Source: a virus (Duplodnaviria; Heunggongvirae; Uroviricota; Caudoviricetes). From it: a stretch of DNA of 26,870 bases. The position numbers were made by a program. Shown in pieces: positions 11,901 through 14,900 of the stretch. The first letter of the stretch is position 1. Every line of letters starts with the position of its first letter. The stretch lies in the IMG/VR virus record IMGVR_UViG_2869947659_000007, positions 1-26,870 of that record; one strand, given 5' to 3'.

Positions 11901-14900
11901 CCAGCCATTCCAGTCCTAACTCCAGAACGGGTAGGCAAAATAGAAGTGCTATCCGGCAGCTTCTTAATGAATCCAGTTCAAAGCCCTGTAAAGGAACAAG
12001 CCGCTTTTGCTGTAAAAAACGTTCGGCAAGAGTGACTAATTTGCTTTGTTCCTGTTCCGTCAGACACGTTAAAAGGGGGATCGATAGTGCTTCCTGCCTG
12101 GGAAGGGCAGTTTGATGTGCTGATTCTTGTACTTTCCAGGGCCACTTAATCATCGTTTTGCTCGCAAACTTGTCACTTGAACAAAATTGCACGGACAGGG
12201 ACTGTTAAAATGCCAAATTTCCTGGCATCATGGCAACCATCTGAACGGAGAGATGCCGGAGCGGCTGAACGGACCGGTCTCGAAAACCGGAGTGGGGGCA
12301 ACTCCACCGGGGGTTCAAATCCCCCTCTCTCCGCCAAAATTCAATCACTTATACATCATTAAGTCAGTGACAAAAATCACACGTGGAATTACTTGGAATA
12401 TTTTCAGGTAACGGGACATCAAGTGTCGGTGAAACTTTAACCTTCCTGTCATAGATTAGCACTTGCCCCTCGGTTTTGTGACCAGAGAAAAGTTGCTTAT
12501 CCCGACTGCTTCCTTCATAGTCTGAAATTCCTTTCGCCTTCAGATCATGAAAGGTGAAGTCTGACATCATACTGTTTTGTCAGCTGATATTGTTCCGCGG
12601 TTTTCGGATTACCTGCCGTAATATTTTTTAAATGCAACATTGTTAAATACTCGCTACGTTATACCAGATGCCATTAATCAGTTTTTGCAGCGGTCGGTAA
12701 TACACACCGTTGACGTTATCCGCTGAGTTACGGCCGGTATCCGATATCGATATCCCTGACAACCCGTGTCCCGAAGGTGAGCGAAACGTCCATGAAACGG
12801 TGTTGCTGCCAGGGTTGTAATACATTTCATAACCATACCGCACATCCTGTACCCCCTCAGTTCGATGTTTATAGCGGGCATCGAAGTTTCCGTAATTTAA
12901 CGGAATTACCTGTCCGTTTACAGCGAATGTGATACTACCATCGGTATTTCTCTGGCTGTAGAAATGCCAGCCGGAATCATCACCAAGCTCTGCAACAACA
13001 GGCCTGGATGGATTACCCCACAAATAAAACGCTGCATTTTTCGTGGAGTTGTTGGCGCTGGATAACGTGAATTTTTTAGCATTTCCGGCCTGAATATTTT
13101 TTAACGCTATCGCCACACCATTCTGGAAACGAAATACATGCTGTCCATTCGCATAAACATCCAGAATGCCGTCGCCGTTTTGTTTTATACCTGTATCGTT
13201 ATCCCCGAAAGCAATTGAATTCCCCCCAGGGCGTTCTGAACGCCGATACCCAGCGCACCATTGACCTGCGAACCACCGCCAACAGACACTTTATGCGACA
13301 TGGATATTTCACCCGTCCGCAGATTAATGGTGAACGGGCGCAGGGGACCAATATCGCCATTTTCCCCCTGACCTTCACTGGTGGGAATAAGGTGCAGGCA
13401 CTCTTCCGAACGACGAAAAATCAGGCCAAAAGCTTCGTTGAAAATCCTCAGCGCATTAACACCACGGATTTTCAGCTCTCCGGTCATGGTGTCGCCATCA
13501 CGCTGAACGGCATTTTTTGCCTTATCCACCGTGGGTTTTAATCCGAGGTTTTCAACAGCCTCATCCCTGTCTTCCACATCCGAAAGGTTATTTTTTATCA
13601 GCAATGCCTCTTCGTTAATTGCACCGCCCACCAGCAATAATATAGCCTTATATAGCTGGTCGTGTTCTTCTTTATTCAGTTCTATCCCGGCCTTCTCAAT
13701 GACACCACAGATTTCCTCCTGAATGGCATTCCACATGGCACTGTTCAGCCAGGTAGCAAGACGTCCTGTGCGAAGATTTCCGTCAGTAAATCCGTTCTTA
13801 CCCGGACCAAACTTATCTTTTACCGCAGTCAGCGTATCAATCCTGTGCATCTTCATCCTCATCTAGATAGGAAAATAAAACGACGGTGTGTGACGGACAT
13901 AATTTATTAATCACGCACTCCGCAACCGTATCCCCCCACGTCCGGATCGGTGTGTTGCAGGCGTCCGTGCATGTCTGCCACTGAGCACCGGCATCCACCG
14001 GCAACGTCACACGCCAGAAATAACGCCAGCGATCTCCCCATTCCGGATCGGGGCTTGCATCCAGGTGCTGGAACTGTTCGATCGTTACGCCGGTATATCC
14101 CAGCGCCTCAAGCTGATCCAGGAAGAACTGCTCATTTATGCCACCAGCCACATTGGCTTTTGCTTCAAGACGTTGCTGACGCTGGCGTAATGTCTGGGTT
14201 CCGACAGGGGAACAGGAATCAGGTAAACCATACAATTCTTCATAACGTTCAATCAGCTCTGTGGACTGACCGGGATCGATTTCAATCACCAGTTCATCAG
14301 CCCGCTGGTGAACACGCACAAGCGATGGTGCCAGACCGTCAAGTACACCGTCGGTATCTGACCATGCAGGCCCCGGCTGCATCAGTCCGTACAGCAGCTT
14401 TGTATAATCATCCTGTAACGAATCCATTATTTACTCCTTGCCGGGTCATAAGCCTGCCAGGTGATCTCGCCGAGCACCGGAAGCTCGGTCTCCCCCAGGT
14501 CAATATCCGATGAAGGGACGATTAACCGGTGGGCCACTTCACCAGCAGACAAACTGATGGCCTCACTGATTCTGGACAGATACATACGCCCCTCTGGCAC
14601 ACTGAGGTAGCCTGAGTTTAACGGACACTCCTTCCTGAAATAGAATGGCATCAGAAGGAGCTAATAATGAGCAGAAAAAACCAACGTTACTCTAAAGAGT
14701 TCAAAGCCGAAGCTGTCAGAACGGTTCTTGAAAATCAACTTTCGATCAGTGAAGGCGCTTCCCGATTATCCCTTCCTGAAGGCACTTTAGGACAATGGGT
14801 TACCGCCGCCAGAAAAGGGCTCGGTACTCCTGGTTCCCGCACGGTGGCTGAACTGGAATCTGAAATTCTGCAACTGCGTAAGGCGTTAAATGAAGCTCGC

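Follow-up and report, generated by a model that had tools for sequence, protein, structure and literature searches.

The nearest named phage to the element described here is phiP27 (NC_003356.1), a functional Stx2e-converting phage. Its published map runs from the attachment site (att) attL, the integrase gene int and xis through to baseplate J (L52), L53, the tail fibre (L54), the tail-fibre assembly gene tfa (L55) and attR. The phage combines lambdoid early genes with an HK97-type head and a Mu-type contractile tail, together with J, a gp48-like gene, the tail fibre and tfa. An int of lambda type at one end, with a J-I-H module of Mu/P2 type at the opposite end, is thus the normal layout for the phiP27 type. 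Here, we compare with it a prophage remnant beside the tRNA gene serU, found in a 26,870-nt stretch of DNA (IMGVR_UViG_2869947659_000007, positions 1-26,870; hereafter the window), in which tail genes, a divided int and several insertion sequences (IS) share the locus.

A close relative of this remnant is the ~44-kb near-complete prophage of strain FDAARGOS_944 (NZ_CP065613.1), which lies at ~622.2-666.3 kb of that record between zinT and serU. Positions in NZ_CP065613.1 are given below as record coordinates, and two loci belonging to the strain are denoted L001 and L003. Read from attR, which is a copy of the serU 3' end, the prophage carries a methyltransferase gene and ipaH, distal tail fibres, tfa, H, YmfQ, J and the remaining tail, followed by head, terminase and lysis genes, then Q, rusA, DUF968 and hokD, the replication and immunity genes, and finally exo, DUF4224 and int next to serU. 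It has two ISEc60 insertions and some frameshifts. The cargo at its attR end is a frameshifted ipaH effector gene and the methyltransferase (L001 6540-9491), and four tRNA genes (Gly, Thr, Lys, Ile) lie upstream of the lysis genes (L003 9366-9675). The strain is labelled E. coli and, as it bears ipaH, is probably an enteroinvasive E. coli (EIEC) or a Shigella-like strain.

The serU prophage and its relatives

Positions 12353-26503 very probably hold the wreck of a single phiP27-like temperate prophage, in which int was split, the body was inverted and parts were deleted. The phage had entered the serU 3' end in the normal manner, with int beside the tRNA and J-I-H-tfa at the distal, attR end, and its prophage then decayed step by step in this Shigella lineage. 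The case for one prophage is that all of the prophage blocks match the one att-bounded prophage of FDAARGOS_944 in one orientation (Table 1). The two share the serU site and int, and their tail, nin and recombination genes are 99.5-99.8% identical; chance is not in question because these near-identical matches to an annotated prophage run over 2-4 kb. In FDAARGOS_944, int is proximal to serU, and J-I-H-tfa and ipaH are at the attR end. The window keeps ~12 kb of such a prophage, inverted, without attR and with another immunity region. The gene order J (gp47), gp48/YmfQ, tail fibre and tfa is retained, colinear with FDAARGOS_944 and with phiP27 L52-L55 (94%). Across the tail module as a whole, phiP27 matches at 94% over 73% of the length; it differs in having another integrase, an 11-bp att site and stx2e, and in being a functional phage, not a relic.

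The initial annotation had offered two readings of this locus, the first being two different phage remnants side by side: a P2/Mu-like tail at serU, and a separate lambdoid early region with int. A Mu/P2-type tail and a lambda-type early region do resemble different phage families, and an unrelated second remnant does exist in the window (770-3777, similar to Stx phage 2851), but it lies across yeeJ. Two remnants at serU are nevertheless very improbable. Both modules are contiguous in the one att-bounded serU prophage of FDAARGOS_944, with int proximal, at 99.5-99.8% identity to the window, and the sequenced phage phiP27 combines the same modules. The Shigella chromosome CP055124.1 (locus L017) has the deleted prophage in un-inverted form, in which tail module, IS600-a, early region, int and serU make up one colinear piece that reads tail_N-tfa-H-I-J'-IS600-DUF968'-...-exo'-DUF4224-int-serU-mtfA. 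The first reading is thus refuted, and by the very finding that the initial annotation had named as decisive: tail module and early region contiguous in one serU prophage with int proximal.

The window itself belongs to a Shigella chromosome. CP026766.1 is identical to it (100%, 0 mismatches over 20.6 kb and 14.0 kb; loci L022 and L032), and L032 extends the sequence 8.5 kb beyond the right end. tRNA genes were called with ARAGORN and domains with Pfam, and the blocks were compared by blastn of the window against FDAARGOS_944. Relatives were obtained by exact-protein look-ups of the 105-amino-acid (aa) N-terminal int product, the DUF4224 protein, YmfQ and the 845-aa exo product. The same look-ups found nothing on record for the chimeric 68-aa open reading frame (ORF) at 12364-12570 or for the 188-aa int fragment, and literature searches on serU, ipaH and Shigella, or on the accession and assembly, found nothing useful.

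Table 1. Features of the window and blastn blocks shared with FDAARGOS_944
Feature	Position	Strand or orientation	Basis or comment
tRNA-Asn (asnT)	11180-11255	-	ARAGORN
serU, tRNA-Ser(CGA), complete with CCA end	12247-12336	+	ARAGORN; in K-12 serU-mtfA-asnT-yeeJ block, 99.5%
attL core: serU 3' part plus 16 bp	12275-12352	+	Repeated at attR of the intact relative
Sequence of the serU 3' core			GGGGGTTCAAATCCCCCTCTCTCCGCCA
Tyrosine integrase 3' remnant: last 65 sense codons plus stop	12364-12561	-	blastn; starts with the GAC target duplication
Novel joint of int 3' part and tfa 5' part	12561/12562		Two blastn blocks meet without overlap; no IS
tfa', first 26 codons of the tail-fibre assembly gene	12562-12640	-	In 99.76% block, record 628053-630094
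H-like tail-fibre gene, pseudogene	12643-13850	-	-1 frameshift in a G run (G7 to G6)
gp48/YmfQ (P2 gpI-like) baseplate wedge gene, intact	13837-14427	-	Pfam PF10076, E=3.9e-24; YmfQ family in FDAARGOS_944
J', last 58 codons of baseplate J/gp47, cut by IS600-a	14427-14602	-	Homology stops at 14602
IS600-a, 1264 bp, TGAGG...CCTCA, orfA and orfB	14603-15866	+	Pfam HTH_Tnp_1 and rve; 'IS3-like element IS600 family transposase'
Lambdoid nin/replication/immunity region: DUF968', hokD, Ead/Ea22, DUF4406, DUF977, 356-aa replication-type protein, YdaT, cro-like (all -); cI-like HTH (+)	15867-22231	mostly -	99.7% to record 653221-657547; Pfam; L032 gene table
IS1	22232-22999	-	DDE_Tnp_IS1; matches partial IS1 at window start (1-753)
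exo' (Exonuc_VIII / Rv2179c-like), 5' end removed by IS1	23000-25400	+	
DUF4224 gene, at the expected excisionase position	25459-25662	+	PF13986
Integrase 5' part, 842 bp, ending in GAC	25662-26503	+	99.5% to FDAARGOS_944 up to record 665998
IS600-b left end; full copy 1264 bp, continuing past window	26504-26870	+	Identical to IS600-a over 367 bp; rest read in L032
blastn block, record 668000-665995	10557-12561	reverse	98.3%
blastn block, record 628053-630094	12562-14602	forward	99.76%
blastn block, record 653221-657547	15866-20192	forward	99.7%
blastn block, record 662492-665998	22999-26504	forward	99.5%

Split integrase, inversion and deletions

The left flank of the prophage has the order yeeJ', asnT, mtfA, serU and is 99.5% identical to E. 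coli K-12, whose homology past the tRNA stops at 12352. serU stays intact because the phage-supplied att core completes the 3' end of the tRNA. This core matches the far prophage end in FDAARGOS_944 (record 622167-622245) over 79 bp at 91% in reverse orientation, and an exact 28-bp copy lies at L001 6132-6159. The initial annotation had suggested that a repeat of the serU 3' end would reveal the att partner. With up to 3 mismatches allowed, neither the window nor the following 8.5 kb of L032 contained a second copy; the rest of the genome was not searched. The partner has been deleted from this locus together with yodB.

A 198-bp stump of int, convergent with serU, is separated from the 3' end of the tRNA gene by 27 bp. 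The stretch 12240-12561 is 98.4-99.7% identical to E. coli junctions between genes annotated as tyrosine-type recombinase/integrase and tRNA-Ser, from O157:H7 and others. The ORF at 12364-12570 (- strand) encodes the integrase C-terminus (FSGHKTEGQVLIYDR), identical to that of FDAARGOS_944 int, and 12364-12561 is colinear with that gene from record 665995. The classic layout of tRNA followed by int is therefore still visible in the form of a stump.

The other part of int (25662-26503, + strand) lies 13.3-14.2 kb away, beyond IS600-a and IS1, and PF00589 was detected on its ORF 26003-26506. This fragment ends TTTTAACCGAC and is followed by the left end of IS600-b, TGAGGTAGCC. The serU-proximal fragment starts (sense) GACTTCACCTTTCATG, and the uninterrupted gene reads AACCGACTTCACC. 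GAC is thus found at 26501-26503 and, as its complement, again at 12559-12561, one of the two homology blocks stopping at record 665998 and the other beginning at 665995. A 3-bp target duplication is expected for an IS3-family insertion, and the duplicated GAC is the one made when IS600 inserted in int. Rejoined with one GAC removed, the fragments give 1037 bp that align end to end with the 1041-bp int of FDAARGOS_944 at 98.2%.

In addition, an A run at ~25931-25937 in the 5' part of int has lost one base (A7 to A6), which gives a -1 frameshift. The identical 105-aa product of the frameshifted gene occurs in 141 assembly blocks, mostly with int contiguous and beside serU and mtfA (L005, L006, L008-L011). 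Because this product is common in canonical int-serU layouts, int was dead before the rearrangement; it was inactivated early, and many Shigella lineages share this state. The locus has no intact integrase: the gene is both frameshifted and split, and is therefore a pseudogene.

These results refine what the initial annotation had said of the layout. The tail remnant is real and its right edge was placed exactly, at 14602 on the - strand with IS600-a beginning at 14603. It does not abut serU directly, as it begins at 12562 and not at 12337; the 225 bp between them are the att core and the int stump. An int fragment does lie 14 kb away, behind two IS elements as described (IS600-a and IS1), but the 3' end of the gene is still next to the tRNA.

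The same evidence bears on the idea of an unusual integration, with the tail end at the tRNA, int distal and nothing inverted. It would account for int being ~14 kb from serU in the window while the tail genes are near it. We consider it hardly credible, as the int 3' end is still beside serU in convergent orientation, as in hundreds of E. coli genomes, and the distal fragment lacks exactly this 3' part and ends at IS600. In relatives that share the IS600-a junctions, int is proximal, and an attR-type junction of tail end and att core is not present at 12337-12562.

An inversion of the prophage body agrees with both flanks. In L032, zinT, msrQ and msrP follow IS600-b on the - strand, as in K-12, and the right end of IS600-b adjoins K-12 position 2042189, 164 bp downstream of zinT. 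The body, from the int 5' part to the tfa 5' part, is inverted between the unmoved flanks serU and zinT: in the blastn comparison, the serU flank (10557-12561) runs in the opposite direction to the prophage blocks. The second reading offered by the initial annotation, an IS-mediated inversion or rearrangement, is borne out, with int split at an IS600 duplication, the body inverted, and 23 kb and 1.6 kb removed by IS600 and IS1.

The IS600 copies were recognized by their termini (TGAGGTAGCC...GTACACCTCA), with TG...CA inverted-repeat ends, and by orfA (helix-turn-helix, HTH) and orfB (DDE/rve). IS600-a joins record 630094 to 653221, so that 23,126 bp (630095-653220), from J to DUF968, are gone. 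The loss comprises most of the tail including sheath and tube, the head, terminase and lysis genes, Q, rusA and part of DUF968. This deletion is older than the inversion, because un-inverted relatives such as CP055124.1 share both IS600-a junctions. IS1 joins record 660902 to 662492 and takes the place of ~1.6 kb that covers ydfA-dicB and the beginning of exo. Also missing from the locus are K-12 2042190-2043450 (yodB and the spacer to serU) and record 622246-628052, with attR, the tfa 3' part, the distal tail-fibre genes, DUF4376, ipaH and the methyltransferase. The ipaH cargo is therefore no longer at this locus in this lineage, which may matter for counts of Shigella effectors.

Neither IS600 copy has a flanking target duplication. 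IS600-a lies between CAC and CTG, and IS600-b between GAC and TCC, the partner GAC being 14 kb off at 12559-12561. The missing duplications show that both copies took part in rearrangements after insertion. Within the window, the two copies are in direct orientation.

Two other Shigella assemblies, UAUR01000007.1 (L004) and AMKC01000085.1 (L007), offer the closest parallels, with an independent inversion of this prophage. In both, IS600 divides int, leaving a 3-bp duplication, and the segment from int to IS600-a is inverted. They differ from the window in the int site used (record 665510-665512) and in having IS600 at both joints; the left joint of the window is IS-free, and its tail module is inside the inverted segment. 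L004 and L007 thus show the pattern of a plain inversion, with an IS at each joint in inverted orientation, and the window does not. The same relic has therefore been rearranged repeatedly in different lineages. In L004 and L007, the ipaH cargo end is joined via another IS to otsA.

The element can neither excise, because int is broken and attR deleted, nor make particles, because the morphogenesis genes are gone, and is a non-inducible relic. Shigella genomes are well known for prophages that IS elements have inverted and eroded, and the finding is known in kind, as ordinary genome decay in Shigella. Correct annotation would record a single defective phiP27-like prophage at serU, its int a split and frameshifted pseudogene, rather than two islands or an int-distal integration. 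Tail genes next to a tRNA can arise by IS-driven inversion of a normally integrated prophage. Beyond correct annotation of the region, the significance is small.

The IS-free joint between int and tfa

The joint at 12561/12562 has no IS. TGA at 12562-12564 fits both tfa and the right terminus of IS600 (right inverted repeat, IRR, on the opposite strand), giving a microhomology of 3 bp. The joint was found in CP026766.1 and in nine other assemblies at 99.97-100% identity, including 9.5-kb short-read contigs that span J'-I-H-tfa'-int'-serU-mtfA-yeeJ, and one metagenome scaffold. Several identical IS copies lie in the region, and a joint created by collapsed IS600 copies during assembly might be suspected. 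This is extremely improbable for a joint that is itself IS-free and that 10 independent assemblies each cover within a single contig. The exact 30-nt joint had no match in GTDB representative genomes or IMG/VR, and no complete E. coli genome covers it. The joint is fixed in a Shigella clade and did not arise through misassembly. The IS-free left joint, with the GAC duplication retained, is the single mildly unusual detail of the locus, and a small natural example for studying the loss of IS3-family copies.

A stepwise route to this structure can be proposed. IS600 would have inserted into int, duplicating GAC, and would then have recombined with an inverted IS600 copy downstream of zinT, flipping the segment between them; an equivalent intramolecular transposition could have had the same effect. 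The IS600 left beside the int 3' part would subsequently have been lost with the DNA carrying yodB, attR, the cargo and the tfa 3' part (~8.4 kb including the IS). This loss might be a transposase-initiated excision, with one deletion end exactly at the IS terminus and repair on the TGA microhomology. We would give the particular order of inversion and excision steps an even chance of being correct.

The excision step has a described counterpart. For the IS3-family element IS629 with IEE in enterohaemorrhagic E. coli (EHEC) O157 (Kusumoto 2011, as cited in PMC9943667), transposase-dependent excision is described with adjacent losses of up to >40 kb and repair on microhomology. The likeness lies in an absent IS, kilobases of adjacent DNA lost with it, an end at the IS terminus and a short microhomology. 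The process is described there for IS629, not for IS600 or Shigella, and provides an analogy for the one step proposed here.

Several observations weigh against the reconstruction. The order and mechanism of inversion and deletion are deduced from the end product, and intermediates were not found in the collections searched. Searches of 5,426 complete E. coli genomes, GTDB representatives and JGI metagenomes did not turn up the junction of IS600-IRR, GAC and the int 3' part; the junction of the int 5' part, GAC and the left inverted repeat (IRL) of IS600 is likewise absent from the E. coli genomes searched. These collections contain few Shigella genomes, which makes missing intermediates weak evidence. 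After a plain inversion between two IS copies, each joint should carry an IS; the left joint is IS-free, so a further step or another mechanism is needed. The 3-bp microhomology would be expected by chance at ~1/64. Finally, the differing immunity region indicates that the FDAARGOS_944 prophage is a close relative and not the direct ancestor.

As a variant of mechanism, and not of identity, a single IS600 transposase event might have produced both the inversion and the attR-side deletion. IS600 would have been cleaved at its right end and joined downstream of zinT, after which GAC with the int 3' part and the resected tfa end would have been joined to each other. Two breaks would then explain the joint at the IS end near zinT, the IS-free joint at 12561/12562 and the loss between tfa and zinT, and the lack of stepwise intermediates among the complete E. 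coli genomes, GTDB representatives and JGI metagenomes would fit, although with so few Shigella genomes there this counts for little. IS911 and its relatives in the IS3 family normally move by copy-out-paste-in. This mode uses single-strand cleavage and involves no donor double-strand break, which makes the single event a rather doubtful proposal. The stepwise and single-event routes lead to the same end product.

By analogy with IS629, the int-tfa joint could conceivably be a natural footprint of IS3-family excision with the loss of ~7 kb, or else of a conservative one-ended IS600 inversion; we put this forward tentatively. If it were so, the IS-removal activity described for IS629 with IEE in EHEC would also shape Shigella chromosomes.

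Other sources of the joint were considered and rejected. For an inversion of tail-fibre genes of the Gin/Pin/Cin type, no resolvase or invertase domain is present in the gene tables of the identical loci L022 and L032, and the tfa breakpoint is joined to the integrase gene rather than to another tfa. A surrogate IS600 end at the tfa breakpoint was unconvincing, the resemblance being limited to TGA and a shifted TACTG.

Remaining genes and neighbouring remnants

Within the tail module, the H-like gene is identical to the 402-aa gene of FDAARGOS_944 at 1206 of 1209 positions, with 1 gap, and shows 94% identity to the phiP27 tail fibre L54. In L022, PF26079 (Baseplate_J_C) matches the J' ORF. YmfQ is among the genes that still look intact from their sequences, with hokD, the cI-like repressor, the cro-like gene, YdaT, DUF977, DUF4406 and Ead/Ea22. 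The hok/gef-family toxin gene (hokD-like; 17070-17282, - strand; PF01848, E=3e-23) appears complete.

The immunity part at 20193-22042 (YdaT, cro-like and cI-like HTH) is 85-96% identical to FDAARGOS_944 or unmatched, while its flanks are 99.5-99.7% identical. FDAARGOS_944 holds a relBE pair in this region, and the window is without relBE there. Such divergence is typical lambdoid mosaicism.

On the far side of yeeJ, the fragment at 770-3777 (- strand) lies between IS1 (1-~768) and an IS3-family element (3778-5079). Its genes are Phage_connect_1, a head closure gene, an HK97-gp10-like gene, a tail completion gene and the first part of a major tail protein. Stx-converting phages such as phage 2851 match the fragment at 98-99% identity; the serU prophage of FDAARGOS_944 has no match to it. 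IS elements placed this fragment next to the shortened yeeJ.

The IS3-family element is ~1.3 kb long, with an orfA of ~105-108 aa and an orfB of 296 aa, and thousands of E. coli genomes carry copies of it at 98% identity. It cuts yeeJ, which encodes an inverse-autotransporter adhesin (4918-10941), and leaves an ORF of 1991-2007 aa; K-12 YeeJ is ~2,340 aa, as calculated from the 7,020-bp annotated gene. Within yeeJ, two ~790-bp stretches offset by ~0.6 kb (6441-7222 and 7050-7831) match each other at 83%, the offset being that of a repeat.

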